Source: Acetobacteraceae bacterium (GTDB lineage: Bacteria > Pseudomonadota > Alphaproteobacteria > Acetobacterales > Acetobacteraceae). From it: a stretch of 64,000 bases of DNA. Shown here piece by piece: positions 1 through 56,476 of this stretch. Every line of letters starts with the position of its first letter. The first letter of the stretch is position 1. A program made the position numbers and the translations under genes. Under the pieces are notes generated by a model, which worked only from the letters and a program-made list of their open reading frames with translations, was not told where the DNA came from and searched no databases. Where the stretch lies: the NCBI GenBank assembly GCA_965231175.1, contig CBDDMJ010000009.1, positions 60,496 through 124,495 on the forward strand, read 5' to 3'.

Positions 1-123
1 CCGAACAACGCACAAGCCGCCGCACTGGCCACAGCCTCCGCCGCGCTGGGCGCCACCGTGGCTGATGAGCTGGTGGCCATGGCAGTGCGGTTCGTGCGGT
101 ATGTGGCGATGGCGGTAAGTTAA
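1..123 (+). CDS. 3' end of an unidentified CDS (5' part outside the window)
   Basis: Frame 1 is open from position 1 and ends ...VRFVRYVAMAVS* at TAA 121-123. Codon style is like the neighbours. No family was recognised. Confidence 0.3.
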   Translation, partial: PNNAQAAALATASAALGATVADELVAMAVRFVRYVAMAVS

Positions 124-325
124 GGAAGGAAGCACTTCTTTTTGTGAACAAAAAGAAGCAAAAAAACTTTATTAATTTGGGTTCGGGGGCGTGGTTGGTT
201 CAACGCCCATGGTCTGGCATAAAATTTATGCTGGGTCCGGGACGTTGTCCGCATCGCGGCCCATGTCCTTAAGGGGCAAAACTTTTTCGGCGCAGCTTTT
301 TTTCAAAAAAGCTGCTGCTTGCTTT
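122..325. repeat. MITE/REP-like nested palindromic intergenic element, copy E1 (long form)
   Basis: Left end is AAGGAAGGAAGCA + hairpin CTTCTTTTTGT/ACAAAAAGAAG + CAAAAAAACTTT. The interior has a GGGCGT..AACGCCC hairpin and a CTGGCATAAAATTTATGCTGG palindrome. The right end hairpin is CAGCTTTTTT/AAAAAAGCTG + CTGCTTGC. Confidence 0.8.
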
Positions 326-480
326 CAGGACCAGACCGTCAACAATCCGACCACCAGCAGGGCGCCGATGGCGCCGAGGACGTTGAACAGCAGGAATTTG
401 GTGAACCAGTTCCAGCCGGTTTGGCTGGTTTGGTCGAATTCGTTTTCGATTTCGGCGGTGTTTGTGGGTTGTGCGTCCAT
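325..480 (-). CDS. small single-TM membrane protein (51 aa), not in the supplied ORF track
   Basis: ATG at 480-478 and TGA at 327-325 give MDAQPTNTAEIENEFDQTSQTGWNWFTKFLLFNVLGAIGALLVVGLLTVWS. It has a polar N-terminus followed by one hydrophobic helix. The gene fits exactly between purN and element E1. Confidence 0.4.
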   Translation of the reverse strand: MDAQPTNTAEIENEFDQTSQTGWNWFTKFLLFNVLGAIGALLVVGLLTVWS

Positions 481-489
481 GATCGGCTT

Positions 490-1101
490 TTACGGGCTGC
501 CGGGTGCGGTTTGCAAGCGGTTTACGTAGGCGGCGAGGGCTGCCGGATAGAGCAGGTGTTCTTGCGCCAGGACGCGGTCTGCCAGGGTGTCCGGGGTGTC
601 GTCGGGGAGTACCGGGACTTCAGCTTGCATCAGGATCGGGCCTTCGTCCATTGTTTCGGTGACCAGATGTACGGTGCAGCCGTGGCGGGACAGGCCGGCG
701 GCGAGGGCCCGGGCGTGGGTTTCAAGGCCGGGTAGGGCCGGGAGCAGGCTGGGGTGGATGTTCAGCATGCGGCCGGCCCAGCGGTTGACGAGGTATGGCG
801 TCAGCAGGCGCATGTAGCCGGCGAGGCAGACGATATCGATGGCGGCGTCGGTAAGGGCGGCGTCGATGGCGGCTTCGTGGGCGGCGCGGTTCTCACCGTG
901 GGGGCGGCTGGGGATGGCCTGGGTGGCGATGCCGGCGGCGGCGGCGCTGGCAAGGCCGGGGGCGCCGGCGCGATTGGAGATGACAAGGGCAATTTGCGCG
1001 GGGTAGTCCGGCTGGGCGGCGGCCTGGATGAGGGCGGCCATGTTGGAGCCGCGGCCGGAGATGAGGATCGCCACGCGCGGTTTGGCGCCTGGCTGAGTCA
1101 C
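490..1101 (-). CDS. purN: phosphoribosylglycinamide formyltransferase
   Basis: 203 aa with [21 protein letters not shown] and [17 protein letters not shown], which are typical PurN blocks. It overlaps the purM stop by 4 nt. Confidence 0.9.
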
Positions 1102-2099
1102 GCGAACAACTGCTCGGTGTTTTCGATGGTGACGCCGGGTGCAGCGGTAACGGCGCCGAGGCGGAACGGTTGTTCGCCTTGCTGTTGCAGGAGGGCTGTG
1201 GCGGCGGCGGCATCCGTTACCACCAGCGCCATGCCGATGCCGCAGTTGAAGACCCGCAGCATTTCATCCGGAGCGATGCCGCCGGTGCGCGCCAGGTGGC
1301 CGAAAATGGGCGGCATCGGCCAGGGGGCGGTGAGCGACGCGCCGCAGCCCGGCGGCAGGACGCGCGGCAGATTGCCGGGCAGGCCGCCGCCGGTGATATG
1401 CGCGGCGGCTTTCAGCAACCCGGCCTGGTGCAAAGCCAGCACCGGCTGCACGTAGATTCTGGTGGGCGTCAGCAAGGCGGGGTCGAGCGGCAGGCAGGCG
1501 TCCGACAGGATGCGCCGGACCAGGGAAAACCCGTTGGAATGGATGCCAGAGCTTGGCAGCGCCAGGATGGCGTCGCCGGGGGCGACATCGCGCGGCAGCA
1601 GCGTGCCGCGCTCAGCCGCACCCACAGCGAAACCGGCGAGATCGTAATCCCCGCCCGCATACATGCCCGGCATTTCCGCGGTCTCGCCGCCGACCAGTGC
1701 GCAGCCGGCCTGACGGCAGCCTTCGGCGATGCCGGCGATGATGGTGGCGGCGGCCGCGACATCGAGCGCGCCGGTGGCGAAATAATCCAGAAAGAATAAC
1801 GGCGTGGCGCCCTGGACGATCAGGTCGTTGACGCACATCGCCACCAGGTCGATGCCGACATGGTCGTGGATGCCGGTTTCGATGGCGAGCTTCAGCTTGG
1901 TGCCGACGCCGTCCGTGGTGGAGACCAGGATGGGGTCCGTGAAGCCGGCAGCCCGCAGGTCGAACAACGCGCCGAAACCGCCGATGCCGCCGAGCACGCC
2001 GGGACGCAAGGTGGATTTCGCCAGCGGCTTGATGGCCTCCACCAGCGCCTCGCCGGCAGCGATGTCGACGCCGGCATCGCGGTAGGTCAGGCTGGCCAT
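1098..2099 (-). CDS. purM: phosphoribosylformylglycinamidine cyclo-ligase (AIR synthetase)
   Basis: [20 protein letters not shown]... with GGFGALF and DGVGTKLK blocks. The start was chosen at the internal ATG 2099-2097, because the ORF-track N-terminal extension has no PurM-like sequence. Confidence 0.9.
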
Positions 2100-2212
2100 A
2101 TGAAACTCCGATGCTGGCTTTGTTTTGGTGAATAAACGCTTTAGATGGATGGGATGGATATGACTGCCTGCCTGCCTTTCACCATAACCGCTTTGCGCGC
2201 GCAATATTTCGC

Positions 2213-3307
2213 ATGAACCAGCTGGTGCCGGGCAGCAGAGTGCAGTGGCAGCGTGTGCTGCTGGTGGGTATCGTGATTCTGGTGCTGTGGGAATGTCTGC
2301 GGCTGTTCTCCTCCATACTCACCCCGTTCGTGGTGGCGGCCGGGGTGGCGTATTTTCTGGACCCGGCGGTCAGCCGCATCAGCCGGCTCGGGGTGCCACG
2401 GGCAGTGGCAGCCCTCGGGATGCTGCTGGCGGCGGTGATCCTGATCACCCTGTTCGTGCTGCTGCTGTACCCGGTGATCGTCTCGCAGATCAGTCAGCTG
2501 GTCAGCAACCTGCCGGGCTATATCGTGATGGTGCAGAAGGAAATCGGGGTGATCCTGACCGAGGTGGAACACCGGCTGGGACCGGGGCAGATGAGCCAGA
2601 AGCTGCGCGACCTTGCCTCCAACCAGGCCGGCAACATCATGTCCATCGCCGGTACCGCGGCAACCAGCATCATCGGCAGCAGCTTTGCCGTGGTCAACGT
2701 ACTGACCCTGCTGATCATCACGCCGATCGTGGCGTTCTATTTCATTCGCGACTGGCCGGCGATCGTGCGCCATGTGGATACCTGGCTGCCACGCCCGTAT
2801 GAAGGCGTGATCCGCGCCCAGGCCGTGGAAGTGAACCGCATCCTGGCCGCCTGGATACGCGGCCAGGCGATTTGCTGTCTGATGCTGGCGACCATCTACG
2901 CCGTCGGCCTGACCATCGTCGGGCTTGACCTCGGGCTGATCGTCGGCCTCGCCGCCGGGTTTCTCTCCTTCATCCCCTATGTCGGCACCATCGTCGGCGC
3001 CCTGGCGGCAGTCGGCCTGTCGCTCAGCCAGGCGCCCGGCTGGCACGGCGTCCTCTCGGTGCTCGCCGTGTTCGCGGTCGGGCAGGCGCTGAACGACTAC
3101 CTCATCCAGCCGCGCTTCCTCGGCGACCGGGTGGGGCTGCACGCCGTCTGGGTGATCTTCGCCCTGTTCGCCGGCGGTGCCGCCTTCGGCTTCCTCGGCA
3201 TCATGCTGGCAGTGCCGGTAACCGCAACCCTCGGCGTGCTGGCCCGCTTCTGGCTGCGACGATACCTGCAAAGCTCCCTGTACCTGGACGCACCACCGGG
3301 GGCGTGA
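2213..3307 (+). CDS. AI-2E family (PerM/UPF0118) membrane transporter
   Basis: 364 aa, polytopic. Sequence blocks such as [13 protein letters not shown] and [10 protein letters not shown] are typical of the family. Confidence 0.85.
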
Positions 3308-3317
3308 GGCGTTGGTG

Positions 3318-3528
3318 AGGAAGAAAGGAAGAAGGAAGTGACTTCTTTTTGTGAACAAAAAGAAGCAAAAAAACTTTATTAGTTTGGGCCTGAGACTTGG
3401 TTAGCAAAACGCCCATGGCCCAGCATAAATTTTATTCTGGGTTCGGAGGCGTTGTCTCTATCAAAGCCCCTGCCCTAGCATGGCAAAAGTTTTTTGCTTC
3501 TTTTTTTCAAAAAAGAAGTGCTTGCTGC
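3318..3528. repeat. MITE/REP-like element, copy E2 (long form)
   Basis: Same module order as E1. It has the CTTCTTTTTGT/ACAAAAAGAAG hairpin, AACGCCCATGGCCCAGCATAAATTTTATTCTGGG, and a CTTCTTTTTT/AAAAAAGAAG hairpin followed by TGCTTGC. Confidence 0.8.
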
Positions 3529-3532
3529 CCTG

Positions 3533-4267: not shown

Positions 4268-4284
4268 GTTCAGGAGAGATGATT

Positions 4285-5010: not shown

Positions 5011-5081
5011 AAGGCAAGGAAGCAGCAGGTAAACCGGCGGGCCAATGTGTTTTCAATGCAGTGGGATTGTTTTCGCATTTA

Positions 5082-6779: not shown

Positions 6780-6816
6780 TCGTCATTCCTCTGAAAGGTT
6801 GGTTTCGCCTGCAATA

Positions 6817-8164: not shown

Positions 8165-8204
8165 GTGGGGTCTTTCCAGTGGGAAGATCGGCTCGAAACG
8201 CTGT

Positions 8205-12283: not shown

Positions 12284-13429
12284 ATGTTAGGGCCAAGCAG
12301 TCTCAAGGAACACAGTGTAAACAGGGATATCGAGACCCTGCGCGGGGTCGCCATCCTGTTTGTCCTTTTTCATCATTTCGGATTTCTGATCATAGGCATG
12401 CCTGCATATAAAATATTCAAAAGCGATTTTGGCTTGTGGAGCGGCGTGGATCTGTTTTTCTGTATTTCAGGGTTCATTATTTCCAAGAACTATTATGAAA
12501 ATTTTGCGCGAGCCGGAAAAAGCAGTCTATTTGCTGTGACCGCGGCTTTTTGGATCAAGCGCATTTTCAGGCTTTGGCCGTCTGCCTGGCTGTGGCTTGC
12601 CCTGATGGTTTGGCAGTTTACCGTACTCGGACTGGCACCTTTCTGGAACAATTTTTCAGATACGGCGGCTGCAGTGCTCGAGGTCGCCAATTTTCACTGG
12701 TGGATGTGCGCCAACGGGCAAAGCCAATGCGGGCAAATCTCGCATTACTGGAGCTTATCGTTGGAGGAGCAATTTTACCTGTTGTTCCCGCTGCTGTTTC
12801 TCCTGCCCCGCCAGCTGCATCTATGGTTGTTTCTTGGTATTGCCGCCATTCAAATTCCCATCCCAAGGGCACCATGGCAAGATATTCTATGGTTCACGCG
12901 GACCGACGCTATTTCTCTGGGCGTATGCATATATCTGCTGTCGCGGTCGCAGGCCTATCAGCAGATGCGACCGATTTTTCTACGCAATAAGGTTGCGGCT
13001 GCGGTCATAAGTGTTGGATTGGCGGTTCTGCTGGCCGCATTTGCAGAACCGCAAGGATTTCCGCAACGGGCGATCGTGCCATTTGCCACCGGTATGGTGG
13101 CGATCATTTCAGCTTTGTTTGTTCTCCTCGCTTCTTATGATGGTGACTGGCTTTTCAACCTGCCGGTATTGCGTCCCATCCTTCTTTGGATCGGCGCGCG
13201 CTCCTATGCGATCTATTTGATTCAAGTTTTTGCCTACCAGGCTGGACAATACCTTGTTTCCAAAAGCTGGGCGGTTCGCCTGGTGCCGGCTGGCTGGCTG
13301 CCGGTCGCGACCGCCATACTGACCTTTGGTCTGTTAGGAATTCTGGCAGAATTAAATTATCGATTGCTGGAAAGGCCTTTGCGAAAGCAAGGCGCGGTTT
13401 TCGCTTCCCGAATGATGCTTAGAGTCTAA
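12284..13429 (+). CDS. acyltransferase family 3 (OafA/NolL/NodX/ExoZ-type integral-membrane O-acyltransferase)
   Basis: 381 aa and polytopic. It has the N-terminal family signature RDIETLRGVAILFVLFHH. Confidence 0.8.
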   Translation: MLGPSSLKEHSVNRDIETLRGVAILFVLFHHFGFLIIGMPAYKIFKSDFGLWSGVDLFFCISGFIISKNYYENFARAGKSSLFAVTAAFWIKRIFRLWPSAWLWLALMVWQFTVLGLAPFWNNFSDTAAAVLEVANFHWWMCANGQSQCGQISHYWSLSLEEQFYLLFPLLFLLPRQLHLWLFLGIAAIQIPIPRAPWQDILWFTRTDAISLGVCIYLLSRSQAYQQMRPIFLRNKVAAAVISVGLAVLLAAFAEPQGFPQRAIVPFATGMVAIISALFVLLASYDGDWLFNLPVLRPILLWIGARSYAIYLIQVFAYQAGQYLVSKSWAVRLVPAGWLPVATAILTFGLLGILAELNYRLLERPLRKQGAVFASRMMLRV

Positions 13430-13432
13430 TCA

Positions 13433-13572
13433 AAGGAAGCAGCCGCTTTTTTGAAAAAAAGCGGCGCAAAAAACTTTTTTGAATCTGGAGCCGGGGCGTT
13501 TCAAACACCGATGACCCAGATTAACAAAAGTCTTTTTGCTGCTTTTTCTTCAGAAAAAGCAGTGCTTGCTTA
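13433..13572. repeat. MITE/REP-like element, copy E3 (short form)
   Basis: AAAGGAAGCA + GCCGCTTTTTT/AAAAAAAGCGGC hairpin + GCAAAAAACTTTT ... CCCAGATTAACAAAAGTCTTTTTG + CTGCTTTTTC/GAAAAAGCAG hairpin + TGCTTGCTTA. Confidence 0.8.
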
Positions 13573-14709
13573 CCTTAGCGCATCAATCCCGAGTTGGGCG
13601 AGGGTGGCCCAGGCGGTGGCGGAGAGGCAGGGGCGGCGGAAGTAGGAGAATTTGGTTTCGGGTTGGCCTGGTATGAGGCTGGGGCCGGTGGTCAGGCCGG
13701 TGGCGAGGGTTGGGGCGGCGGTAGCGTAGACGTAGCCGTTGGGGGCGGTGTTGGCGGCGATGGTTGAGGTGAAATTCGTGGCCAGGGGGTGCTGGGCGCG
13801 GTGCAGGGCCAGGGCTGCGAAGGCGGTGCCTTCCAGCCAGATGCCGTGGCTGGCGGCAGAAAAGCCGATGCCGTTGCCGTGCTGCAGTTTTTGGATGGCC
13901 GCCAGGGCCGAGGCGGCGGTGCCGATTCCGGCGAGGTAGGGCCAGATGCCGGCATCGGCGGCGAGCAACGGGTTGGCAGCGCCGCCGGGTGTGAGGCCGG
14001 CCTCGAAGACGCCGGTTCGACAGCGGCTGACAACGAAGGTTTTGGCGCTGGCGGCAGCGGGCAGGCGCAGTTTGGCGAAGGCGGCGTAGACATCGATATT
14101 CTGTTCGGTGCTTTGCCAGAGCTGTTTCAGAGGATGCGGTTCGAAGCCATAGAAGCCGCCGTAAAAACCTTGCGGGGCCGAGAGATTGGCGATGATCCAG
14201 TCTGCCGCGCGTTGCGCCGGGGCGGTTTGGCCAAGGGCGATCCACAGCAGCATGGCCCAGGCCAGCGGCCCGGTGGCGGTGCCGGCCTGGTAGGGGTCTT
14301 CGCGCCATTGGCTGGCTTGCCGGTCCCACCAGCCGGGCAGTCTGGCCGGCGTTGTCATGGCGCCAGCCTGATAGGCATTGCGCAGCCGCCCGTCGGTCCA
14401 GAAGCGGTCGTGGGTTTGCGCGATCTCCAGCGCGGCGCCGATGCGGCAGGCGGCGGTGGGCTCGCCGCCTGCCAGCAGGGCGAGGCCGGCGAGGGCATTG
14501 TCATAGACATAGGCGGCATTGGCCTGGGTGAGGTCGAAGTCGGTCGCTGCCGCACCGGTGTTGACGATGTAGCTCGGCAGCAGCACCGGGCCGGATGGCA
14601 GGGCGGCCATGGTGCGGCGGATGGCCCCCAGATAATCGGATGCCAATGCCGATGGCGCGGTGGCTGGCAGCAGCGCCAGGCCGGCGGTGAGCGTGCGGCG
14701 TGAGATCAC
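13570..14709 (-). CDS. secreted hypothetical protein (possibly an alpha/alpha-toroid fold)
   Basis: 379 aa with an N-terminal signal MISRRTLTAGLALLPATAPSALA. It is Ala/Gly/Trp-rich with repeated helical blocks. The family was not recognised. Confidence 0.55.
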   Translation of the reverse strand: MISRRTLTAGLALLPATAPSALASDYLGAIRRTMAALPSGPVLLPSYIVNTGAAATDFDLTQANAAYVYDNALAGLALLAGGEPTAACRIGAALEIAQTHDRFWTDGRLRNAYQAGAMTTPARLPGWWDRQASQWREDPYQAGTATGPLAWAMLLWIALGQTAPAQRAADWIIANLSAPQGFYGGFYGFEPHPLKQLWQSTEQNIDVYAAFAKLRLPAAASAKTFVVSRCRTGVFEAGLTPGGAANPLLAADAGIWPYLAGIGTAASALAAIQKLQHGNGIGFSAASHGIWLEGTAFAALALHRAQHPLATNFTSTIAANTAPNGYVYATAAPTLATGLTTGPSLIPGQPETKFSYFRRPCLSATAWATLAQLGIDALR

Positions 14710-16611: not shown

Positions 16612-16845
16612 ACCAGCCTCTCAGATGAAGCCGCCGGAAACAGCCGGCAGGCAAAAGGTTACAAAACGGTCCAACGAACCAGCCACCGGAATGTCGCCAC
16701 CCCAATGCTGCCAGAACGCTTGACGTCGTTACGTAACCACGAGACTTCAAATGAGGCCGTGGCAGAGGCACGTGCGTTGCTGCGTGCGCTGGAATTACGG
16801 GCCACAACGGTAGAACGCAAGTGAATTTTGCGATTGGGTGGGGGG

Positions 16846-16995
16846 GAAGAAAGCAAGCAGTTCTTTTTTGAAAAAAAGAACCAAAAAACTTTTGCCATGC
16901 TGGACCATAGGCGTTTGCCTGACAGCGCCCAGGCCCAGACTCATAAAGTTTTTTTGCTTCTTTTTGTTCACAAAAAGAAGATACTTGCTTTGCTT
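16846..16995. repeat. MITE/REP-like element, copy E4 (short form)
   Basis: GAAGAAAGCAAGCA + GTTCTTTTTT/AAAAAAGAAC hairpin + CAAAAAACTTTT ... GGCCCAGACTCATAAAGTTTTTTTG + CTTCTTTTTGT/ACAAAAAGAAG hairpin. Confidence 0.8.
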
Positions 16996-20007: not shown

Positions 20008-20577
20008 ATGAGCAAAATCGCCATTATCCACCATTCCGGCTATGGCCATACCCATCGCATGGCCAAGCATGTGGAAGAGGGCGTTGCCAATACCGGTGCC
20101 GATGTGCATCTCATCGCCATCAACGAGCATGGCGATATCACCGATTACGATTGGGAATTGCTCGGCAGCGCCGCCGGCATATTGTTTGGCTCCCCGACCT
20201 ATATGGGCGGGCCATCCTGGCAGTTCAAAAAATTCGCCGATGCCAGCTCCAAGCCCTGGTTCGCGCAATTATGGAAAGATAAATTCGCCGGCGGCTTTAC
20301 CAACTCCGCCACCATGAACGGCGATAAATTCTCCACCATCCAGTATTTCATCACCCTCGCCATGCAGCACTCCATGGCCTGGGTCGGCACCGGCATGATG
20401 CCCTCCAACAACAAAGCCGCCACCCGCGAATCGGTGAATTACGTCGGCGGGTTCGCCGGCGCCCTGGCGCAATCCCCGGCGGATGCCTCGCCGGATGAAA
20501 TGATCCAGGGCGATCTGCAAACCGCGATAAAATTCGGCGAGCGCTTTGCGCGGTTTGTGGCGGTGCATGGGAAGTAA
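20008..20577 (+). CDS. flavodoxin-like fold NAD(P)H:quinone oxidoreductase (WrbA-like)
   Basis: MSKIAIIHHSGYGHTHRMAK..., GSPTYMGGPSWQFKKF. The start was chosen at the internal ATG; the upstream part of the ORF is antisense to FKBP. Confidence 0.75.
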   Translation: MSKIAIIHHSGYGHTHRMAKHVEEGVANTGADVHLIAINEHGDITDYDWELLGSAAGILFGSPTYMGGPSWQFKKFADASSKPWFAQLWKDKFAGGFTNSATMNGDKFSTIQYFITLAMQHSMAWVGTGMMPSNNKAATRESVNYVGGFAGALAQSPADASPDEMIQGDLQTAIKFGERFARFVAVHGK

Positions 20578-20720
20578 GGCAGAAAGCAAGCACTGCTTTT
20601 TTGAAAAAAAGCAGCAAAAAACTTTTATGAGTTTTAAGCCGGGCGTTTCAAACACCAATGGCCCAGATTAACAAAAGTCTTTTTGCTGCTTTTTCTTCAG
20701 AAAAAGCAGTGCTTCCTTAC
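20576..20720. repeat. MITE/REP-like element, copy E5 (short form)
   Basis: AAGGCAGAAAGCAAGCA + CTGCTTTTTT/AAAAAAAGCAG ... GGCCCAGATTAACAAAAGTCTTTTTG + CTGCTTTTTC/GAAAAAGCAG + TGCTTCCTTAC. It starts inside the TAA stop at 20575-20577. Confidence 0.8.
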
Positions 20721-21377
20721 TTATAAAAGGGATGCAGCGATGTTGACTGAGAGGGCCAGCAGGATCGTGTTGAACAAGAAACTGATCATGCCGTGCAGGG
20801 TGGCCAGACGCCGTAATCCGCGGCCTGTGATGTTGACGTCCGCTACCTGAAACGTCATCCCCAGCACAAAGGAATAATACACGAAATCCAGATAATCCGG
20901 ATTTTCCTCATGTGGAAACTCCAGCCCTTTCTGAAACGATCCATCGGCGGTTTTTTCATAATATTCATGCGCGTAACGATACGCGAATGTCACCTGCGTG
21001 GTCAGCCAGGACAAAGCCAAAGTCGAAATCACGAAGGTGAGATAGGCGCTGCGATGCGCCTGGTGGGCGTCGTGATTGGTGAAAATGAAAATGGCGGCAA
21101 AACTCATTGCCGAGCCGATCAACGTCAGGGCGAAGATCGTCCACTCCCCCTCCTCCTGCTGCTCGGCGTCGCGGGCGATCCGCGTATGGTCCGAACGGGC
21201 AAACAAAACCGCCGTCAGACCCAGATAAACCACCGCCCCAATATCCCAGGCCACCACCACACGCGTCGCAACATGCGGCACCGAGGCCAGGCAAAAGTAA
21301 CTGCAAACCGCCAAGGCCAGACCGGTAAACAACCGCGGCCTGCCGCCTATAATTCTGAACAACCGCCAATCCAACAT
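20721..21377 (-). CDS. DUF1345 family membrane protein
   Basis: 218 aa with 4-5 TM helices and a DFVYYSFVLGMTFQVADV block typical of the family, as I recall it. Confidence 0.65.
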   Translation of the reverse strand: MLDWRLFRIIGGRPRLFTGLALAVCSYFCLASVPHVATRVVVAWDIGAVVYLGLTAVLFARSDHTRIARDAEQQEEGEWTIFALTLIGSAMSFAAIFIFTNHDAHQAHRSAYLTFVISTLALSWLTTQVTFAYRYAHEYYEKTADGSFQKGLEFPHEENPDYLDFVYYSFVLGMTFQVADVNITGRGLRRLATLHGMISFLFNTILLALSVNIAASLL

Positions 21378-24422: not shown

Positions 24423-26502
<2,080 letters not shown>

Positions 26503-26504
<2 letters not shown>

Positions 26505-26709
26505 GGCAGAAAATAAGTTCTGCTTTTTTGAAAAAAAGCAGCAAAAAACTTTTGAATGCTGGGGCATGGGCGTGATGCGGACAACGCCTTTGAACCAGCA
26601 GAAATTTTATGCCGGGGCAGGGGCGTTCGGCGGACAACGCCCCTGGCCCAGATTCATAAAGTTTTTTTGCTTCTTTTTTGTTCACAAAAAAGAAGTGCTT
26701 TCTGCCTTG
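26503..26709. repeat. MITE/REP-like element, copy E6 (long form)
   Basis: It starts in the EF-G TAA stop. CTGCTTTTTT/AAAAAAAGCAG hairpin, two GGGCGT..AACGCC hairpins flanking CCAGCAGAAATTTTATGCCGG, then CTTCTTTTTTGT/ACAAAAAAGAAG. Confidence 0.8.
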
Positions 26710-28350: not shown

Positions 28351-28444
28351 TTTTGACCATGCGGCGGGGGGATGGGAAAGGCGTGATAAGCCGGGCTATT
28401 GCAACTCTCGAATCCGACGAAAATGCAATGATCGCAAAAAATGG

Positions 28445-28565
28445 TTGATCTTCTCAAAAAAAGCAAAAAACTTCATGAGTCTGGGCCTTCGATCAAACGC
28501 CTCGGGCCGTGCATAAATTTCTCTGATGGTTCCAGGCTGTCCGCTTTACGCCCAGCCCCTTAAGT
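28445..28565. repeat. degenerate MITE/REP-like element, copy E7
   Basis: AAAAAAGCAAAAAACTTCATGAGTCTGGGCC..AAACGCCTCGGGCCGTGCATAAATTT retains internal modules. Both terminal hairpins are eroded. Confidence 0.5.
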
Positions 28566-28589
28566 TTTATTAACAATAAATTGGTTTCG

Positions 28590-32532: not shown

Positions 32533-33515
32533 AACGCCTGACGATCCTGGCGGTCTGCTCGTTCCTGCTGTATGGCATGGTGTTCGGATTTATCCTGGAC
32601 CGGCCATTGTCTTTAGGATTATTGCAGCTCGAGATGCAGCAGAAAACGGCGCGGCTGGCGCGGCTGCCGGCGCGCAAACTGGTGATCCTCGCCGGCTCGA
32701 ACGGGCCGTACTCGCATTCATGCCAGGTGATCGGCGCCATGCTGAGCCTGGCCTGCGAAAACGCCGGGATCGCCGTCGGCATCGGGCTCGACGATATCTT
32801 CATGCAATATGCTTCGTATTTGCATAAAGGCGATATCGTCTACATGCCGATGGAGACCGCGCAATATGTCACGACCCGGGCGCAGAACCGCAGCGATGCG
32901 GATGGCGGCATATTGCTGCGCTACGACCGCGCCCGGTTGATGCAGCTGCCGCCGGACCGCAGCATCGGCGCGCTGTTCTGCTGCAATCTCAGCGATTTTC
33001 TGGAATCCCTGGCCGAGATGCCGATCGCGCAGGCAGGGTTGATCAAACCCCAGGCCTTGCTTGCCACGGAGTATAACGAAGAGGGCGATCGCATCGGCGC
33101 CGTGTTGGCGAGTGCCGATAAATCATTGCTCAACCGGCCGGCGCGTCCGGCACCGGATGCCAAAGCCATTACCGCCGGCTATGGCGCCCAGCTGATCGCC
33201 GCCTTCGTGGCAAGCGAAACCGCGCGCGGCGTTATCGTCATCGGCGGCCTGCCGACCGATTTCACCGACGCCGCCCTACCGCCGCAAACCATCCAGGCCA
33301 TCAGTGATATCTACACAAAAAACGGCGGCAGATTCATGGTACTGGCAAATCACAGCCATTATCCGCGCGAAGATTTCTACGACAGCGAGGATCATCTGGC
33401 GCAGCCTTATCAATATATACATTCGGTGGCGGTGGCGAACATGTTGAAGCAAGCAGTTCTTTTTGTGAAAAAAAAGAACCAAAAAAACTTTGCCATGCTG
33501 GGGCATGGGACGTGA
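32529..33515 (+). CDS. hypothetical membrane-anchored protein coupled to the MBOAT gene
   Basis: The TTG start overlaps the MBOAT TGA (TTGA). It has an N-terminal TM helix MKRLTILAVCSFLLYGMVFGFIL. The last ~22 codons (KQAVLFVKKKNQKNFAMLGHGT*) are encoded by repeat copy E8. Confidence 0.5.
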   Translation: MKRLTILAVCSFLLYGMVFGFILDRPLSLGLLQLEMQQKTARLARLPARKLVILAGSNGPYSHSCQVIGAMLSLACENAGIAVGIGLDDIFMQYASYLHKGDIVYMPMETAQYVTTRAQNRSDADGGILLRYDRARLMQLPPDRSIGALFCCNLSDFLESLAEMPIAQAGLIKPQALLATEYNEEGDRIGAVLASADKSLLNRPARPAPDAKAITAGYGAQLIAAFVASETARGVIVIGGLPTDFTDAALPPQTIQAISDIYTKNGGRFMVLANHSHYPREDFYDSEDHLAQPYQYIHSVAVANMLKQAVLFVKKKNQKNFAMLGHGT

Positions 33516-33645
33516 TGATGACAGCGCCTCCGGACCCAGAATAAAATTTATGCTGGGCCATGGGCGTTTGGTTGCTAACGCCCATGGCCCAGACTCATAA
33601 AGTTTTTTTGCTTCTTTTTGTTCACAAAAAGAAGATACTTCCTCC
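33446..33645. repeat. MITE/REP-like element, copy E8 (long form)
   Basis: GAAGCAAGCA + GTTCTTTTT../..AAAAGAAC hairpin, CCCAGAATAAAATTTATGCTGGG palindrome, GGGCGTTTGGTTGCTAACGCCC hairpin, GGCCCAGACTCATAAAGTTTTTTTG + CTTCTTTTTGT/ACAAAAAGAAG. Confidence 0.8.
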
Positions 33646-33652
33646 CCCCTAT

Positions 33653-35065: not shown

Positions 35066-35094
35066 GGTATCCTCCTGTTGGTTTTATTTATTTT

Positions 35095-35241
35095 AAGGAA
35101 GTAAGCGCTTCTTTTTTGAAAAAAAGAAGCAAAAAACTTTTACTCCTTGGGGACATGGGTTGTGATGTCGACAACGCCTCCGCCCCAGACTCATAAAGTT
35201 TTTTTGCTTCTTTTTGTTCACAAAAAGAAGTGCTTCCTTTC
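35095..35241. repeat. MITE/REP-like element, copy E9 (short form)
   Basis: AAGGAAGTAAGCG + CTTCTTTTTT/AAAAAAGAAG + CAAAAAACTTTT ... CCCCAGACTCATAAAGTTTTTTTG + CTTCTTTTTGT/ACAAAAAGAAG + TGCTTCCTTT. Confidence 0.8.
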
Positions 35242-35244
35242 TCT

Positions 35245-41174: not shown

Positions 41175-41177
41175 CTA

Positions 41178-41250
41178 GCAGCAAGCAGCAGCTTTTTTGT
41201 AAAAAAGCTGCGCAAAAAACTTTTGCTCCTTGGGGCATGGGCGGTGGTGC
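41178..41250. repeat. half MITE/REP-like element, copy E10
   Basis: GCAGCAAGCAG + CAGCTTTTTT/AAAAAAGCTG hairpin + CGCAAAAAACTTTTGCTCCTTGGGGCATGGGCG. The second half is absent. Confidence 0.5.
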
Positions 41251-41260
41251 CAGCGTCTTT

Positions 41261-48853: not shown

Positions 48854-48860
48854 TTAAATT

Positions 48861-49066
48861 AAAGGAAGCAGCCGCTTTTTTGAAAAAAAGCGGCGCAAAA
48901 AACTTTTGCCATTGAAGGCAAGGGCGTGATTCCGGCAACGCCCCCGAACCCAGGGTAAAATTAATGCTGGAGCATGGGCGCTGGCAATGACAACGCCCCA
49001 GCCCCAGATTCACAAAAGTTTTTTTGCTGCTTTTTTTTCAAAAAAAGCAGTGCTTTCTTGCCTTGC
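48861..49066. repeat. MITE/REP-like element, copy E11 (long form)
   Basis: AAAGGAAGCA + GCCGCTTTTTT/AAAAAAAGCGGC, GGGCGTGATTCCGGCAACGCCC, CCCAGGGTAAAATTAATGCTGG, GGGCGCTGGCAATGACAACGCCC, CTGCTTTTTTTT/AAAAAAAGCAG. Confidence 0.8.
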
Positions 49067-50234: not shown

Positions 50235-50429
50235 GCCGGGGTCGGGAAAAACGGCGTCGCCACGGGTAAGCCTCCTGATCCAGCGTATTTACATCATTGG
50301 TTTGCAGTGTTCTGCTCAATAATGGCATAAACAAGGCACTGTAAGCCCTTACGGGCAAACGGAAGTTTCTGCAAGTAAAACCTGGGCGCCATGATTGTCT
50401 TTGGCATGGGTTTGCCGGTACATCACCTC

Positions 50430-50777
50430 ATGAAGCGCATTTTGCCCTTACTGTGTCTGGGTCTGGCCGCCTGCGCCGGGCGTGGCGCGCCGGCGGTGCT
50501 GCCGGTCCCCCCGGTGGCCGGCAAAATGCTGTACGGTACGGTTGCCGCGATCCGGCCGGTCGATATCGCCAGTGCGCAGGATGCTCAGGCCGCCGGCATC
50601 AACGCCGTGCTCGCCGCCTTGCAGCAGCCGGCCCTGACCCCGCCGGTGACAGCACAGGAGGTGGTGATCCGGACCGACGATGGCGGTGCAGTTTCGATCA
50701 TCAGCGCGGTGCCGCATAGCCCCGGCCAAAAGGTCGGGATTTTGCAGGGCACGCCGACCAGCCTGCTGCTGCGCTAG
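50430..50777 (+). CDS. small lipoprotein, unknown function
   Basis: MKRILPLLCLGLAACAG lipobox. About 115 aa. Confidence 0.5.
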   Translation: MKRILPLLCLGLAACAGRGAPAVLPVPPVAGKMLYGTVAAIRPVDIASAQDAQAAGINAVLAALQQPALTPPVTAQEVVIRTDDGGAVSIISAVPHSPGQKVGILQGTPTSLLLR

Positions 50778-50778
50778 C

Positions 50779-50918
50779 AGAGGAAGTAGCCGCTTTTTTG
50801 AAAAAAAGCGGCGCAAAAAACTTTCATAAGTCAGGAGCCGGGAGTTTTTAACGCCATTGGCCCAGATTAATAGAAGTCTTTTTGCTGCTTTTTCTTCAGA
50901 AAAAGCAGTGCTTCCTTA
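50779..50918. repeat. MITE/REP-like element, copy E12 (short form)
   Basis: AGAGGAAGTA + GCCGCTTTTTT/AAAAAAAGCGGC ... GGCCCAGATTAATAGAAGTCTTTTTG + CTGCTTTTTC/GAAAAAGCAG + TGCTTCCTTAT. Confidence 0.8.
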
Positions 50919-50974
50919 TAACCGGACCGCGCGCTGCAGTTGAAGACGGCTGCCCATTCGGCTATCGCCAGACC

Positions 50975-51874: not shown

Positions 51875-51878
51875 GGAC

Positions 51879-52661
51879 ATGGCCAGCCTCAGTATCGAGC
51901 GCGTTTCGATCTCCTTTCCGCTGTATCACGGCGAAAGCCGCAGCCTGAAGAAAACCGTGTTCGCCGCCGCCTCCGGCCGGCTCGGCGAGGACCGCCGCCA
52001 CCGCCTGGTGGTGCAGGCGCTGCGCGATGTTTCCTTCACGCTGAACAGCGGTGACCGCCTTGGCTTTATCGGCTCCAACGGCGCCGGCAAAACCACGCTG
52101 CTGCGCGCCATGGCCGGTATCTACGAGCCGGTGGAAGGCCATATCCAGATCAACGGCGCCGTCACCGCCCTGCTGGACCCCGGGCAGGGCATGAACCTCG
52201 AACTCACAGGACGCGAAAACATCCGCCTGCGCGGCCTGTTCAACGGCCTCAACCCGGCACAGATTGCCCAGTTGATCGACGACGTCGCGGAATTCGCCGA
52301 GCTGGCCCAGTTCATGGACTTGCCGGTGCGAATGTACAGCTCCGGCATGGTGGTCCGCCTCGGCTTCGCCCTGGCCACCGCCACCAAACCGCAAGTCCTG
52401 CTGATGGACGAATGGATCCTCGCCGGCGACGCCAGCTTCATGGACAAAGCCCGCAACCGGCTGGAAACCATGGTCCGCGGCGCCGAGATCCTGGTGCTGT
52501 CGTCGCACTCGGCCGATATCATCATGAAATGGTGCAACCGCGTGATCTGGATGGACGGCGGTGAAATCCGCGCCGATGGAGCACCGGACGACGTCCTCTC
52601 CGCCTATCTGACGCCGGATCAATTCGCGCTGGCCAAGGCGACGTTGAAGGTGGTGGCTTAA
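51879..52661 (+). CDS. ABC polysaccharide export ATP-binding protein (Wzt/KpsT-like)
   Basis: MASLSIERVSISFPLY.. with Walker A GSNGAGKTT, signature YSSGMVVRL and Walker B VLLMDEW. Confidence 0.85.
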   Translation: MASLSIERVSISFPLYHGESRSLKKTVFAAASGRLGEDRRHRLVVQALRDVSFTLNSGDRLGFIGSNGAGKTTLLRAMAGIYEPVEGHIQINGAVTALLDPGQGMNLELTGRENIRLRGLFNGLNPAQIAQLIDDVAEFAELAQFMDLPVRMYSSGMVVRLGFALATATKPQVLLMDEWILAGDASFMDKARNRLETMVRGAEILVLSSHSADIIMKWCNRVIWMDGGEIRADGAPDDVLSAYLTPDQFALAKATLKVVA

Positions 52662-52909
52662 GACAAGGAAGCACTTCTTTTTGTGAACAAAAAGAAGCAA
52701 AAAACTTTATGAGTCTGGGCCTGGGGCGGAGCGGCCAAGGTTGCGTATGCGAAGCGTATGGAATGCCGCGGAGGGGTGGTCCGCCAAACGCCTCATGATC
52801 CGGTATAAATTTCTGCTGGGTACTGGGCGTTGTCTGCATCCCGCCCCATGCCCCAGAAGAATCAAAAGTTTTTTGCTGCTTTTTTTCAAAAAAGCAGTGC
52901 TTGCTTTAC
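52659..52909. repeat. MITE/REP-like element, copy E13 (longest form, extra internal insert)
   Basis: It starts in the TAA stop at 52659-52661. CTTCTTTTTGT/ACAAAAAGAAG, ATGAGTCTGGGCC, an extra ~50-nt insert containing GCGTATGCGAAGCGTATGG, a CCGGTATAAATTTCTGCTGGG module, then CTGCTTTTTTT/AAAAAAGCAG + TGCTTGC. Confidence 0.8.
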
Positions 52910-53707
52910 TTTTCCCTCATCCGCTCCGGCGATCATGCCGAAGCGGATGAACAGGTCGATCAGCACCAGGTTCACGTTGAATTTGAAATCGTCGGTGGTG
53001 GCGACGATTTTGAAGACTTCATCGAGCGGCATCAGGGTGAAGGACGCCATTTCTCCGTCTGCCGGGATGGGGGTGAAGCTTTCCGGCAGGATCAGGTCGT
53101 AGGCGAAGATGGCGTCGCGGCGCAGGCCTTCCGGGCGTTGCATATCGTAGCGGAAGAAGGCCACCGGTCTGGCTTTGGCGGCCAGGCTGGGGGGCAGGCT
53201 GGCTTCCTCGGCGGCTTCCTTGAGGAGGGTTTGCTGCCGGCTGAAGCCGGCTGCGATGCCGCCGGCCACCAGATGGTCGAGCTTGCCGGGGTCGAGTTTT
53301 TTATCGGCGGCGCGTTTGCCGACCCAGAGGTGCCAGCCGGCGGCGTTTTTGACCAGCCCGTTGACATGCACGCCGGCGCCGATGACGCCGAAATCCGGTA
53401 CCGCGCCGCGGTCCAGGATTGCCAGCACCGGGCCGTCCACATCCTGCCGCACGTCGAAATTTTCATCGCGCAGGGCGATGCCGGCGGCTTTGGCGATGGC
53501 ATTCAGCTGGCCGGCCGCGGCGCTGTGCAGCACCACGCGGTCTGTCACCTTGATATCCGGATTGGCGGCCAGTTTTGCCGCCAGTTCAGGGCTCACATAG
53601 CCGACGTGCCGGTCGCCGATGTGGAACGCCAGGCGGCCGCCGGGCAGGAATGCGTTCCGGCAGGCTGTTATGTGAGATAATAGCTTTTCAATTTCAGGTG
53701 TAGATGC
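52886..53707 (-). CDS. NUDIX-related (DUF4743-like) protein, tentative
   Basis: The start was chosen at MASTPEIEKLL. The Nudix box is only partly recognisable (GGIAAGFSRQQTLLKEAAEEASL). The last 8 codons and the stop lie inside repeat E13. Confidence 0.5.
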   Translation of the reverse strand, partial: ASTPEIEKLLSHITACRNAFLPGGRLAFHIGDRHVGYVSPELAAKLAANPDIKVTDRVVLHSAAAGQLNAIAKAAGIALRDENFDVRQDVDGPVLAILDRGAVPDFGVIGAGVHVNGLVKNAAGWHLWVGKRAADKKLDPGKLDHLVAGGIAAGFSRQQTLLKEAAEEASLPPSLAAKARPVAFFRYDMQRPEGLRRDAIFAYDLILPESFTPIPADGEMASFTLMPLDEVFKIVATTDDFKFNVNLVLIDLFIRFGMIAGADEGKVKQALLF

Positions 53708-53719
53708 CATCTGGCAGAG

Positions 53720-55609
53720 ATGAGACCTAGCCACTCCGTTGCCAACCCGTCGCCGCCAGCAGACCATAAGAGCAAGCCGGGCCGCAGCGGCTGGGCGACC
53801 ACCCGGTCATTGTTGCCGTATCTATGGCCGAAGAACGCCCTCGGCCTGCGGGTGCGGCTGGTGCTTGCCACGATTTGCATGATCCTTGCCAAGGTCGCTA
53901 CCGTTTATGTGCCGATCCTGTATTCGCACGCGGTCGATCAGCTGTCGCCGAAGGCCGGCATCCTGGTGGTTCCGGCCGCCATCATCGTGGCATATGGTTT
54001 GGTTCGCATTGCCTCGACGGCGTTTGGCGAGCTGCGGGACGCGCTGTTCGCGGCGGTGCAGATGCGCGCCTCGCGGGTGGTTGCCCGGCAGACCTTCGAG
54101 CATTTGCATGGCCTGTCGATGCGGTTTCATCTGGACCGCCAGACCGGCGGGCTTTCCAACGTTATTTTGCGCGGCACCCTTGGCATACAGAATGTGCTGC
54201 GTCTGGCCACGTTCAATGTGGTTCCTACCATCATCGAGCTGATGCTGACCGCCGGCATTCTTTGGTATATGTTCGGCATCTGGTTTGCCGTCGTCACTTT
54301 CCTCGCCGTGGTGGTTTATATGGGCTTCACCTTCGGTATGACTGCATGGCGCTCCAAATTCCGCCGCCTGATGAACCAGACCGATAACGAGGCGCAGACC
54401 AAAGCCATCGACTCATTATTGAACTTCGAAACCGTGAAGTATTTCGGCAATGAGGAGCATGAGGCCAGCCGCTTCGACCAGAGCCTGGCGCGCTATGAAA
54501 AAGCCTCGGTGCAGTCGCAGGTGTCGCTGAACGCCTTGAACATCGGGCAGGGTGTAGTGATTTCGTTGGCGCTCGCGGTGATGATGCTGATGGCTGCCGA
54601 TGCCGTCAGCCAGCACCGCATGACGGTTGGCCAGTTCGTGCTGGTCAATACCTATCTCATGCAGCTGTATGTGCCGCTTGGCATGCTCGGCTTCGTGTAC
54701 TGGCAGATCAGCCAGGGTCTGGTGGATATGGAGCAGATGTTCTCGCTGCTGCATGTCAACCAGGATATCGCCGATGCGCCGGATGCCCGCATACTGCCGG
54801 CCACCGGCCTGCCGGCCGAAGTGCGGTTTCAGGATGTGCGTTTTGCCTATAATCCGGACCGGGAAATTCTGCATGGCATCGGCTTCACCGTGGCACCCGG
54901 GCAGAAAGTCGCGCTGGTCGGGCCGACCGGCTCCGGCAAATCCACCATCAGCCGCCTGCTGTTCCGCTTTTATGATACCACCCAGGGCAGCGTGCTGATC
55001 GACGGCACCGATATCCGCGAGATCACGCAGAAATCGCTGCGCGCCAGCATCGGCGTGGTGCCGCAGGATACCGTGCTGTTCAACGATTCAATCTATTACA
55101 ATATCGCCTATGGCCGCCCCGGCGCCAGCACTGAGGAGATCGAGCACGCCGCGCGTCTGGCGCAGATACATGATTTCATCATCACCTTGCCGCAAGGCTA
55201 CCAGACCAAGGTGGGCGAACGCGGGTTGAAACTCTCCGGCGGTGAGAAGCAGCGCGTTGCCATTGCCCGCACCATTTTGAAAAATCCCCGTATCCTGATC
55301 CTGGACGAAGCCACCTCGGCGCTCGACACCGCCACCGAGCAGGAGATCGGCGCCGCCCTGCGCTCCATCGCCTACGACCGTACCACCCTGGTGATCGCCC
55401 ACCGGCTCTCGACCGTTACCGATGCCGATGAAATCCTGGTGCTGTCCGAGGGCAATATCGTCGAACGCGGCACCCATGCCGATCTGCTGGATGCCCAAGG
55501 CACTTATGCCGCCATGTGGGCAGCCCAGGTCGAGCTTGAGGATATCGCCGTCGAAGCCGGGATCGACCCGGTGCAGCTCGAAAAAACCGTCTCGGAAGCC
55601 GCGGCGTAA
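53720..55609 (+). CDS. ATM1/HMT1-type ABC exporter (TMD-NBD)
   Basis: 629 aa with 6 TM helices, then Walker A GPTGSGKST, signature LSGGEKQR and Walker B ILILDEATSALD. Confidence 0.85.
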   Translation: MRPSHSVANPSPPADHKSKPGRSGWATTRSLLPYLWPKNALGLRVRLVLATICMILAKVATVYVPILYSHAVDQLSPKAGILVVPAAIIVAYGLVRIASTAFGELRDALFAAVQMRASRVVARQTFEHLHGLSMRFHLDRQTGGLSNVILRGTLGIQNVLRLATFNVVPTIIELMLTAGILWYMFGIWFAVVTFLAVVVYMGFTFGMTAWRSKFRRLMNQTDNEAQTKAIDSLLNFETVKYFGNEEHEASRFDQSLARYEKASVQSQVSLNALNIGQGVVISLALAVMMLMAADAVSQHRMTVGQFVLVNTYLMQLYVPLGMLGFVYWQISQGLVDMEQMFSLLHVNQDIADAPDARILPATGLPAEVRFQDVRFAYNPDREILHGIGFTVAPGQKVALVGPTGSGKSTISRLLFRFYDTTQGSVLIDGTDIREITQKSLRASIGVVPQDTVLFNDSIYYNIAYGRPGASTEEIEHAARLAQIHDFIITLPQGYQTKVGERGLKLSGGEKQRVAIARTILKNPRILILDEATSALDTATEQEIGAALRSIAYDRTTLVIAHRLSTVTDADEILVLSEGNIVERGTHADLLDAQGTYAAMWAAQVELEDIAVEAGIDPVQLEKTVSEAAA

Positions 55610-55664
55610 GCTGGATTTGCGGCCGCCAGCCACCAAGTAAAGACGCCAAGAAAGGCAAAGCCCG

Positions 55665-55922
55665 ATGGAGCCAATACAGCCTACGCCGGAACGCGAGCTC
55701 TCCCAGGCCGGTTCGGTGGTCGATAAAAGCATCGAATTCATGACCGGCCAGAACATCCCGCCGCTCGCCATCGCTTCGGCCCTGCTCGGCGGCGCCATCG
55801 GCGTACTGTGCCGCAACCTGCCGGACGATATCGTTATCCAGATCCTGCAAAACGCCATCGAAAGCATCGAAACCGGCGAAATGCATAACGCCGCCGGCCA
55901 GGACCACGCCGGCACGGCTTGA
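55665..55922 (+). CDS. hypothetical protein (85 aa)
   Basis: The ORF is followed by a good intrinsic terminator. No family was recognised. Confidence 0.4.
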   Translation: MEPIQPTPERELSQAGSVVDKSIEFMTGQNIPPLAIASALLGGAIGVLCRNLPDDIVIQILQNAIESIETGEMHNAAGQDHAGTA

Positions 55923-55957
55923 CCCTGGCGGGCGGTTTCGCCATAACCTGCGGCGCG

Positions 55958-55987
55958 CAGCCCTGCAAAGGGCTGCTTTCTGTTTTG
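55958..55987 (+). terminator. Rho-independent terminator candidate
   Basis: Stem GCAGCCC/GGGCTGC, loop TGCAAA, followed by TTTCTGTTTT. Confidence 0.55.
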
Positions 55988-56008
55988 TAGACAAGTAGGA
56001 TATACCCG

Positions 56009-56308
56009 ATGGCCCGCCGCTGCGAATTGACCGGAAAAACCGTGATGTCTGGCAATAATGTCAGCCACGCCAACAACAAGACCCGCCGCCGTTTCCTGCC
56101 CAATCTGCAGGAAACCACGCTGACCTCGGATATCCTCGGTGCCGTCCGCCTGCGCCTGTCGACCCGCGCCATCCGGACCATCGAACATAATGGCGGCCTC
56201 GATGCCTACATACTTGGCCAATCCGCCAGCAAGCTGACCACCGAAGGCCGCGTACTGAAACGCCGCCTGAACCTGGCCTCCGCCAAGAAAGACGCCAAGG
56301 CGGCCTGA
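56009..56308 (+). CDS. rpmB: 50S ribosomal protein L28
   Basis: [34 protein letters not shown] is the canonical L28 N-terminus. Confidence 0.9.
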
Positions 56309-56336
56309 GCCGGATTACTTTCAAAGGGGTCGGTTG

Positions 56337-56476
56337 TAAGGAAGCACTGCTTTTTCTGAAGAAAAAGCAGCAAAAAGACTTTTATTAATCTGGGCCATTG
56401 GCGTTTAAAATTCCCGGCTTCGGACTCAAAGAAGTTTTTTGCGCCGCTTTTTTTCAAAAAGCGGCTGCTTTCTTTG
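56337..56476. repeat. MITE/REP-like element, copy E14 (short form, inverted relative to E3/E5/E12)
   Basis: GTAAGGAAGCA + CTGCTTTTTC/GAAAAAGCAG + CAAAAAGACTTTTATTAATCTGGGCC ... AAGTTTTTTGC + GCCGCTTTTTTT/AAAAAGCGGC + TGCTTTC. Confidence 0.8.

Follow-up and report, generated by a model that had tools for sequence, protein, structure and literature searches.

What is the palindromic repeat that occurs 14 times between the genes of a 64,000-nucleotide stretch of an Acetobacteraceae genome (contig CBDDMJ010000009.1, positions 60,496 to 124,495), and what does it do there? We refer to this whole stretch as the window and to the copies, in order, as E1 to E14. The window has a GC content of ~61%, its APC permease is 81–87% identical to proteins named Acidocella, and the organism appears to be Acidocella-like. 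With about even confidence, we regard the repeat as a composite extragenic palindromic repeat, of the same kind as REP/BIME, ERIC, and BoxC, that would act as a two-way transcript-end element with hairpin- or triplex-prone ends.

Anatomy and gene-end position of the repeat

All 14 sites were read and searched with a profile of the terminal module, and the repeat is present at every coordinate given by the first-pass annotation. The profile detected 26 modules in the window with E-values of 1e-18 to 4e-7, none of them away from the 14 sites; they make up 12 complete and two partial elements, the latter being E7 and E10. In a motif scan of the entire window, the core CAAAAAACTTT-type motif was confined to the same sites. 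The shortest copy has 85 nt and the longest 251 nt, and together the copies cover 2383 nt (3.7% of the window), in agreement with the earlier estimate of ~2.3 kb. The short form of ~145 nt contains one GC-rich hairpin, and the long form of ~205 nt contains two, linked by a CATAAAATTTATG-type palindrome.

A complete copy consists of two inverted terminal modules of ~50 nt, which flank the GC-rich hairpin or hairpins. The layout described previously is correct: a GGAAGCA-type end is followed by an A/T-rich hairpin, CAAAAAACTTT, an (ATGAG/ATTAA)TCTGGGCC segment, the GGGCGT..AACGCCC hairpins, and a mirror image of these parts at the far end. The GC hairpin is enclosed by CAAAAAACTTT...AAAGTTTTTTG, so that A-tract, GC-rich stem, and T-tract follow one another. 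Because the two ends of one copy are usually different module types, orientation is readable, and E14 can be seen to run opposite to E3, E5, and E12, as stated in the first-pass annotation. Read inward, a module comprises (AAGN)3-4, a 4-bp outer stem, T6, GA, A6, the complement of the outer stem, a linker C, a third segment of A6, and CTTTT; the left module of E9 is dissected in Table 1. The element boundary is fuzzy because the number of AAGN repeats varies.

The A/T-rich end hairpin has 10 bp including the 4-bp foot, and this foot co-varies. The outer stem takes the forms CTTC/GAAG, GTTC/GAAC, GTCC/GGAC, CCGC/GCGG, CTGC/GCAG, and others. In a fixed-geometry alignment, 105 unique modules have C-G as its first pair (columns 12/33) and 61 have G-C, and another outer-stem pair is T-A in 144, C-G in 15, and G-C in 7. 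RNAalifold reported changes on both sides at five of eight pairs; when applied to whole elements, it recovered one end hairpin only, because the element centres do not align. The local end hairpins, folded as DNA, reach −8 to −13 kcal/mol, and two whole elements fold as one long hairpin of −87 kcal/mol (z = −8.9 against shuffled sequence) and −65 kcal/mol (z = −10.4). The outward-reading end hairpin with its CTTCCTT tail was flagged by a terminator scan.

When the strands of the neighbouring genes were set by codon-position GC and Pfam, the copies proved not to saturate the intergenic space, as had been stated, but to occupy gene 3' ends. In the window, elements occupy 9–10 of ~11 convergent junctions, in most cases in contact with the stop codons of both genes. 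Another four directly follow the upstream gene of a tandem junction, and none lies in a divergent junction. Across genomes, 70 elements could be classified, with 45 in tandem, 21 in convergent, and 4 in divergent junctions; random placement would put about a quarter of them in the last class.

GANTC sites (GAGTC, GACTC, and GATTC; the CcrM methylation motif) were seen beside the GC hairpins in most window copies (e.g. E4, E8, E9, and E13; 35179-35183), and they are not kept in the family across other genomes. Readings of motifs as sites of IHF or CcrM (GANTC) or as Shine-Dalgarno sequences were dropped as unsupported.

Three-way co-variation in the end modules

The T-run of the 5' arm, the A-run of the 3' arm, and the third segment change together. 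In the standard type they read TTTTTT, AAAAAA, and AAAAAA, and the variants are TTTTTC, GAAAAA, and AAAAAG; TTTTCT, AGAAAA, and AAAAGA; and TTTTTCT, AGAAAAA, and AAAAAGA. Matched lengths of 5/5/5 and 7/7/7 for the two arms and the third segment were also found. The third segment mirrors the 3' arm, which is equivalent to complementing the 5' arm in parallel. When 168 unique modules were selected by fixed geometry only, the association gave Fisher p = 4e-14 and 1e-17 at two variable columns, uncorrected for relatedness. It was seen in the mirror register only; shifting the register or making it antiparallel abolished it. Many assemblies contain variants side by side with the standard type, and these variants have differing outer stems and lie at loci that are not orthologous.

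The rule, together with one earlier example, predicted that a TTTCTT/AAGAAA hairpin carries AAAGAA as its third segment. This prediction was tested in a metagenome scan with a pattern that fixed the hairpin only and left the third segment free. The predicted AAAGAA was carried by 91 of 103 TTTCTT/AAGAAA modules, and AAAGAAA by 14 of 15 modules of the 7-nt form. With this metagenome variant included, 182 of the 198 modules that have a C-G pair in the tract carry G at the mirrored position, and any G in the third segment was found in only 2 of 207 standard modules. The variant counts are not independent events since the copies are related; four or five allelic types were counted. One orthologous pair, in which both hairpin arms changed and the third segment did not, weighs against the mirror rule.

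A shifted Watson-Crick helix, in which the tail of the outer stem and the T-run would pair with the third segment, was considered and is disfavoured. It predicts the same sequences as the mirror rule when the outer stem is NTTC, so that only six modules discriminate between the two (CTGC in four, TTAC, and CTAC), and these obey the mirror rule.

The order of pyrimidine, purine, and mirror purine blocks (T6, A6, and A6, with GA and GAAG-C as loops) is the layout of a class II intrastrand triplex, and that of class IV on the other strand. The change from T·A*A to C·G*G is the isosteric exchange expected of base triples, and corresponds to U*A-U to C+*G-C on the other strand. We tentatively propose, while judging it somewhat improbable, that selection keeps the A/T-rich ends foldable as an intrastrand triple helix of such triples.

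A near-identical TTCTTTCTTTGAAAAGAAAGAA(C/G)CAAAGAAACTTT motif was seen to recur across the gut metagenome contigs L142, L149, L157, L159, L182, L183, L190, L192, L206, L210, and L221. On its upstream side stands either of two fixed flanks, AAGGCTAAGACTCT or GGAAATAAGCTGAT, and L159 is low in GC. This motif also has the pyrimidine, purine, and mirror purine layout, outside an Acetobacteraceae context.

Spread, turnover and origin of the family

A scan of one genome per species with the pattern AAAAAGN{2,4}GCAAAAAACTTT returned at least 118 loci. Among the loci listed, most belong to Acetobacteraceae, including bog and lichen metagenome-assembled genomes (MAGs), Acidocella, Acidiphilium rubrum, Acidiphilium sp. 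PA, and Rhodovastum, and a minority are chance matches in Clostridia. The module profile identified at least 331 modules and at least 107 complete elements in the listed loci and the window, with modules in ~100 of the 118 loci. Element length across genomes is 125–320 nt with a mode of 130–150 nt. End modules occur in ~40 other assemblies that are independent of the window's. A plasmid collection gave a single match, on Acidiphilium multivorum AIU301 plasmid pACMV3, inside an ABC-transporter operon. The end modules are kept across genera, and the centre differs by lineage: the Acidocella/Acidiphilium type has CTGGGCC..GGGCGTT..AACGCCC..GGCCCAG, and the bog/lichen type has CCGCTGTCGCGG..CCGCGACAGCGG. 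The family appears to be native to the acidophilic branch of the Acetobacteraceae.

The copy on pACMV3 (2911-3057 of locus L122, NC_015179.1 12234-12380) is spanned by an annotated 48-aa "hypothetical protein", WP_154653566.1, which is probably a spurious gene call. In a bog MAG labelled Acidobacteria (L112, 6034-6117), two end modules stand back to back and face outward, without (AAGN)n between them; the contig may belong to Acetobacteraceae and be mis-binned, or two elements may join here. Five A-rich matches to the search pattern, ~100 nt apart, at 2029-2254 and 7849-7970 of L029 (Porcipelethomonas ammoniilytica, Clostridia) suggest an unrelated tandem or interspersed repeat.

Most copies are kept at orthologous sites with a flank identity of 85–93%. 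The check for presence/absence polymorphism recommended in the first-pass annotation revealed one case, a convergent junction that is filled in L057 (~6140-6320) and empty in L109 (3944-3976), the empty site not being a clean excision footprint. At another orthologous site the element has opposite orientations in two genomes, and one synteny break (L004 versus L021) coincides with a truncated element. These three observations indicate that the copies turn over. The permease gene next to E8 has an ortholog in L120 that is also followed by an element. In the permease homolog loci L119–L121, DNA identity is 82%, synteny is lost outside the gene, and no clean empty sites were found.

The terminator-like layout of the core and the position at gene ends lead us to favour a two-way transcript-end element. 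Such an element at gene 3' ends would act on transcripts arriving from either side. The A-tract, extended GC-rich stem, and T-tract of the core would serve as a bidirectional intrinsic terminator or 3'-end stabiliser, and the stem of each end hairpin would take up, as a third strand, the adjacent A6 or, on the other strand, T6. The turnover of copies at gene ends would be slow, and the mechanism behind it would leave target duplications that escape detection or none at all. Bidirectional intrinsic terminators likewise have an A-tract, a GC-rich hairpin, and a T-tract and are placed between convergent genes. However, the present element is far longer, has a pairing A/T-rich spacer between the GC core and the T-run as well as extra end hairpins, and as a whole unit is dispersed in many copies instead of having evolved in place. 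For the proposed third strand, the U·A-U RNA triple helices of MALAT1 and PAN-ENE are similar in the way of working only: the outward strand has the same order of U-run, short linker, U-run, loop, and A-run, and U·A-U is exchanged isosterically for C+·G-C. They are eukaryotic or viral and clamp a 3' A-tract in another topology; the RNA form of the new repeat, with a 3' end at this place, is a prediction.

Several points weigh against this reading. The T-run lies 9–11 nt past the GC-rich core and adjoins the stem only if the A/T-rich stem base forms. BoxC/PIT of E. coli, the closest triplex-type repeat, has neither terminator nor promoter activity (PMC4666352). The sense strand of 44 elements in tandem context has 164 G·U-type versus 156 A·C-type mismatches, which is no RNA-specific signature. 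Single modules are only weakly skewed relative to transcription, with 24 in entry and 13 in exit orientation (p = 0.10). The gene-end bias could be explained by selection against insertions elsewhere alone, and it is layout and position that suggest termination or stabilisation.

An alternative that we consider unlikely is that the modules are cut and pasted as single-stranded DNA, in the manner of REPINs, by a domesticated HUH/Y1 enzyme of the RAYT (REP-associated Y1 transposase) type encoded by one gene per genome. This would explain the inverted doublets, the absent target duplications, and the long vertical persistence. Hairpin modules do occur as inverted doublets and as singletons, orthologous copies persist across species, and the stems co-vary as expected if they are recognised in single-stranded form. 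REP/BIME sequences of E. coli and other Proteobacteria, together with REPIN doublets, share much with the new repeat: they are extragenic and multi-copy, lie at gene 3' ends in convergent or co-directional junctions, form mosaics of hairpin units in alternating orientation, leave no target duplication, and are kept at orthologous sites. On the other hand, REPs are GC-rich palindromes of 20–40 nt, whereas the new repeat is built from A/T-rich modules of ~50 nt with separate GC hairpins, and its end modules are kept across several genera. It has no GTAG or CGTC tag beside the hairpin, where the 13 upstream positions are (AAGN)n, and a 2013 survey of tagged REPs reported the CGTC-tagged class to be missing in Acetobacteraceae. 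A tblastn search with a RAYT sequence as query found no match in ~0.9 Mb (the window and loci L001–L121), which is weak evidence as the gene would be single-copy.

The repeat had been described as MITE/REP-like (MITE, miniature inverted-repeat transposable element). That it is a true dispersed, modular, nested-palindromic family stands, but the MITE label is not supported by the defining evidence. A plain non-autonomous MITE, whose ~50-bp inverted ends are recognised by the DDE transposase of an insertion sequence elsewhere and which piles up at gene ends since other insertions are harmful, is in our judgement quite unlikely. It would account for the long terminal inverted repeats, the small size, the many copies, the filled and empty states in L057 and L109, and the flipped element; flanking TA/TAA is frequent as well, but this is confounded with stop codons, so that duplications of 2–3 bp are inseparable from them. 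The target-site duplications that the first-pass annotation had asked for were not detected, as direct repeats of 3–5 nt (none longer) at the ends of 102 elements matched a shuffled-partner control, and those of ≥4 nt were no commoner than in shuffled controls. A cognate transposase was not found either: module pairs 0.7–1.3 kb apart enclose only ordinary genes, with no transposase open reading frame (ORF) and no parent insertion sequence, and the window contains none. Moreover, the boundary is a variable (AAGN)n run rather than a sharp end, and conservation of the end modules across several genera while their stems co-vary is unexpected for a protein-binding site on duplex DNA. Correia elements of Neisseria and other bacterial MITEs resemble the repeat in size (100–250 nt), terminal inverted repeats, short and long forms, and a long RNA hairpin, and Correia elements can act as a terminator, a likeness to the role proposed here. 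Correia elements differ in having sharp 26-bp ends and a TA duplication and in being limited to one genus; the new repeat has fuzzy ends, no detected duplication, and a range of several genera. Gene-end position, cross-genus conservation, and internal co-variation place the repeat in the REP/BIME/ERIC/BoxC class better than among MITEs.

The lack of an RNA-specific mismatch bias and the weak skew of single modules leave room for a role at the DNA level, which we regard as very doubtful. Cruciform- or H-DNA-prone ends would then act on supercoiling, nucleoid protein binding, or replication, or would merely be unstable non-B DNA, as proposed for BoxC/TMECO, without any RNA role. The middle block of the homopurine mirror repeat (A6-GAAG-C-A6) also belongs to the inverted repeat, which is the class II/IV layout described for BoxC; the mismatches show no strand bias, and the synteny break and the flipped element are in keeping with such a role. 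However, the avoidance of divergent junctions and the abutting of stop codons would be unexplained. An isolated strand of BoxC/PIT/TMECO of E. coli folds into a triplex in vitro, but no stable one was observed in vivo or in duplex DNA, and BoxC has no known function (PMC4666352). In common with the new repeat, BoxC has pyrimidine, purine, and mirror purine blocks and is intergenic, multi-copy, and sometimes arranged in inverted pairs (Hoyne 2000; Holder 2015, PMC4666352). The sequences are unrelated: BoxC is G/C-rich (CCCTCNCCC..GGGNGAGGG..GGGNGAGGG) whereas the new motif is A/T-rich, and the module does not match the TMECO consensus CCCTCNCCC-N3-6-GGGNGAGGG-N3-GGGNGAGGG. In addition, the motif here makes up the two ends of a larger palindrome, the core of which is terminator-like, and its triplex reading rests on cross-genus co-variation, not on biophysics.

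Chance similarity, or an artefact of collapsed or duplicated reads as contemplated in the first-pass annotation, is virtually out of the question and was refuted, since the copies differ from one another and each has a unique gene context, module E-values go down to 1e-18, and dozens of independent assemblies (~40) as well as a finished reference plasmid contain the family, which is therefore neither artefactual nor strain-specific.

A last comparison concerns ERIC/IRU of Enterobacteriaceae and Vibrionaceae, which is also an imperfect palindrome of ~130 nt in transcribed intergenic regions, with long forms that arise by internal insertions and with cross-genus conservation. It is unrelated in sequence, as judged by Rfam only, belongs to another host group, and has no triplex-type ends. 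A search of Rfam gave no match at the gathering threshold, and the matches at E ≤ 1, among them mir-4524 and the plastid psbA 3'UTR, were all generic long hairpins; the literature searched holds no description or name for the repeat. Judged by tag, consensus, target duplication, and host range, it fails the defining features of REP/BIME, ERIC, BoxC, and Correia-type MITEs. It is best filed as an apparently unnamed family of extragenic palindromes that is new for its A/T-rich triplex-type ends.

Window copies, their neighbours, and what the family means

The coordinates of the window copies and their neighbouring genes are collected in Table 1.

Table 1. Copies of the repeat in the window, with their modules and gene context (window coordinates; strand in brackets)
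Feature	Position	Form	Modules or parts	Gene context
E1	122..327	long form, two GC hairpins	122-192 (+), 258-327 (-)	stop of + gene running off window start; stop (TCA 325-327) of 51-aa minus-strand ORF
E2	3318..3531	long form	3331-3398 (+), 3463-3531 (-)	convergent: AI-2E transporter 2213-3307 (+), methyltransferase 3533-4267 (-) (Pfam)
E3	13428..13574	short form	right module: TTTTTCT/AGAAAAA/AAAAAGA variant	convergent: acyltransferase 12284-13429 (+), ORF 13570-14709 (-)
E4	16845..16995	short form		minus-strand tandem junction, just after stop of TPR/glycosyltransferase gene 16994-19540 (-)
E5	20575..20722	short form		convergent: FMN reductase 19846-20577 (+), DUF1345 20721-21377 (-); both stops overlap element ends
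E6	26502..26708	long form		begins at TAA stop of EF-G-like gene 24423-26504 (+)
E7	28430..28570	degenerate	left module alone recognisable, 28430-28491 (+), 29 bits	element end 20 nt from stop of purA 28590-30161 (-)
E8	33443..33646	long form		convergent: ORF 32529-33515 (+) running into E8, APC permease 33653-35065 (-)
E9	35093..35243	short form		minus-strand tandem junction: from CoA-transferase gene stop (35245-35883 -) to permease gene start
E9 left module	35095..35141 (+)			
E9 left module, (AAGN)3	35095-35106			
E9 left module, outer stem CTTC	35108-35111			
E9 left module, T6	35112-35117			
E9 left module, GA	35118-35119			
E9 left module, A6	35120-35125			
E9 left module, GAAG	35126-35129			
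E9 left module, C	35130			
E9 left module, third segment A6	35131-35136			
E9 left module, CTTTT	35137-35141			
E9 right terminal module	35195..35243 (-)		GTGAAC-loop type, inverted orientation	
E10	41175..41260	half element	left module 41175-41245 (+), one GC hairpin, then T-run; terminator-like hairpin 41234-41251 (terminator scan)	convergent: ORF 40581-41174 (+), histidine kinase gene 41261-42763 (-) (Pfam)
E11	48858..49066	long form		convergent: AcrB-type pump 45800-48853 (+), SLT/SPOR protein 49068-50234 (-)
E12	50777..50920	short form		plus-strand tandem junction: after ORF 50391-50777, before ABC-2 permease gene
E13	52660..52910	longest copy	extra ~45-nt insert in first GC hairpin	convergent: ABC ATPase 51837-52661 (+), NUDIX protein 52886-53767 (-)
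E14	56335..56478	short form		plus-strand tandem junction

A low-GC stretch of ~10 kb at 3530-13430 (52–57% versus ~62%) contains no copies, and the sole convergent junction without an element (4201-5010 + and 5082-6779 -) lies within it. Its genes encode a GMC oxidoreductase, a gluconate-2-dehydrogenase subunit 3-like protein, an ABC exporter, a chitin-synthase-like GT2 protein, and an acyltransferase. The stretch looks like a horizontally acquired island that is younger than the spread of the repeat.

Between E6 and E7 (26709-28430, 1.7 kb), no ORF has a Pfam match. A phosphatase-like frame there, which we take to be of the COG5350 family, appears to be split by a frameshift, with MNLPFRITICGLDELAGH ending at 26777 and the other frame resuming from 26758; it is probably a pseudogene or a sequencing error. 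The 51-aa ORF beside E1 (MDAQPTNTAEIENEFDQTSQTGWNWFTKFLLFNVLGAIGALLVVGLLTVWS, 328-480, -) ends exactly at the right edge of the element, has one predicted hydrophobic helix, and has no Pfam match. The region upstream of the EF-G-like gene contains, at 24177-24266, a tandem of three 24-nt units (TAYTAYCSNGCGCCGCCGC...) that would, if translated, give a proline-rich YY(R/A)PP repeat.

Extrapolation from the density in the window gives several hundred copies per genome. If so, the element would shape transcript ends across an environmentally important group of acidophiles. It appears already to cause spurious gene calls, such as the 48-aa protein on pACMV3. As a finding, the family is solid but of an ordinary kind; its three-way co-variation is unusual. 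For intrastrand triplex motifs in bacterial repeats, the work on BoxC/PIT was unable to demonstrate either formation or importance in vivo (PMC4666352). The present family offers a natural allelic series (T6/A6/A6, TTTTTC/GAAAAA/AAAAAG, TTTTCT/AGAAAA/AAAAGA, and TTTCTT/AAGAAA/AAAGAA) whose members behave like compensatory triple mutants, and the in vivo relevance of intrastrand triplexes is therefore directly testable. If the triple-helix proposal is true, the family would be the first among dispersed bacterial repeats to have a triplex that rests on isosteric three-way co-variation across genera, and its RNA form would cap or reinforce many mRNA 3' ends in acid-loving bacteria, much like the MALAT1/ENE triple helices.

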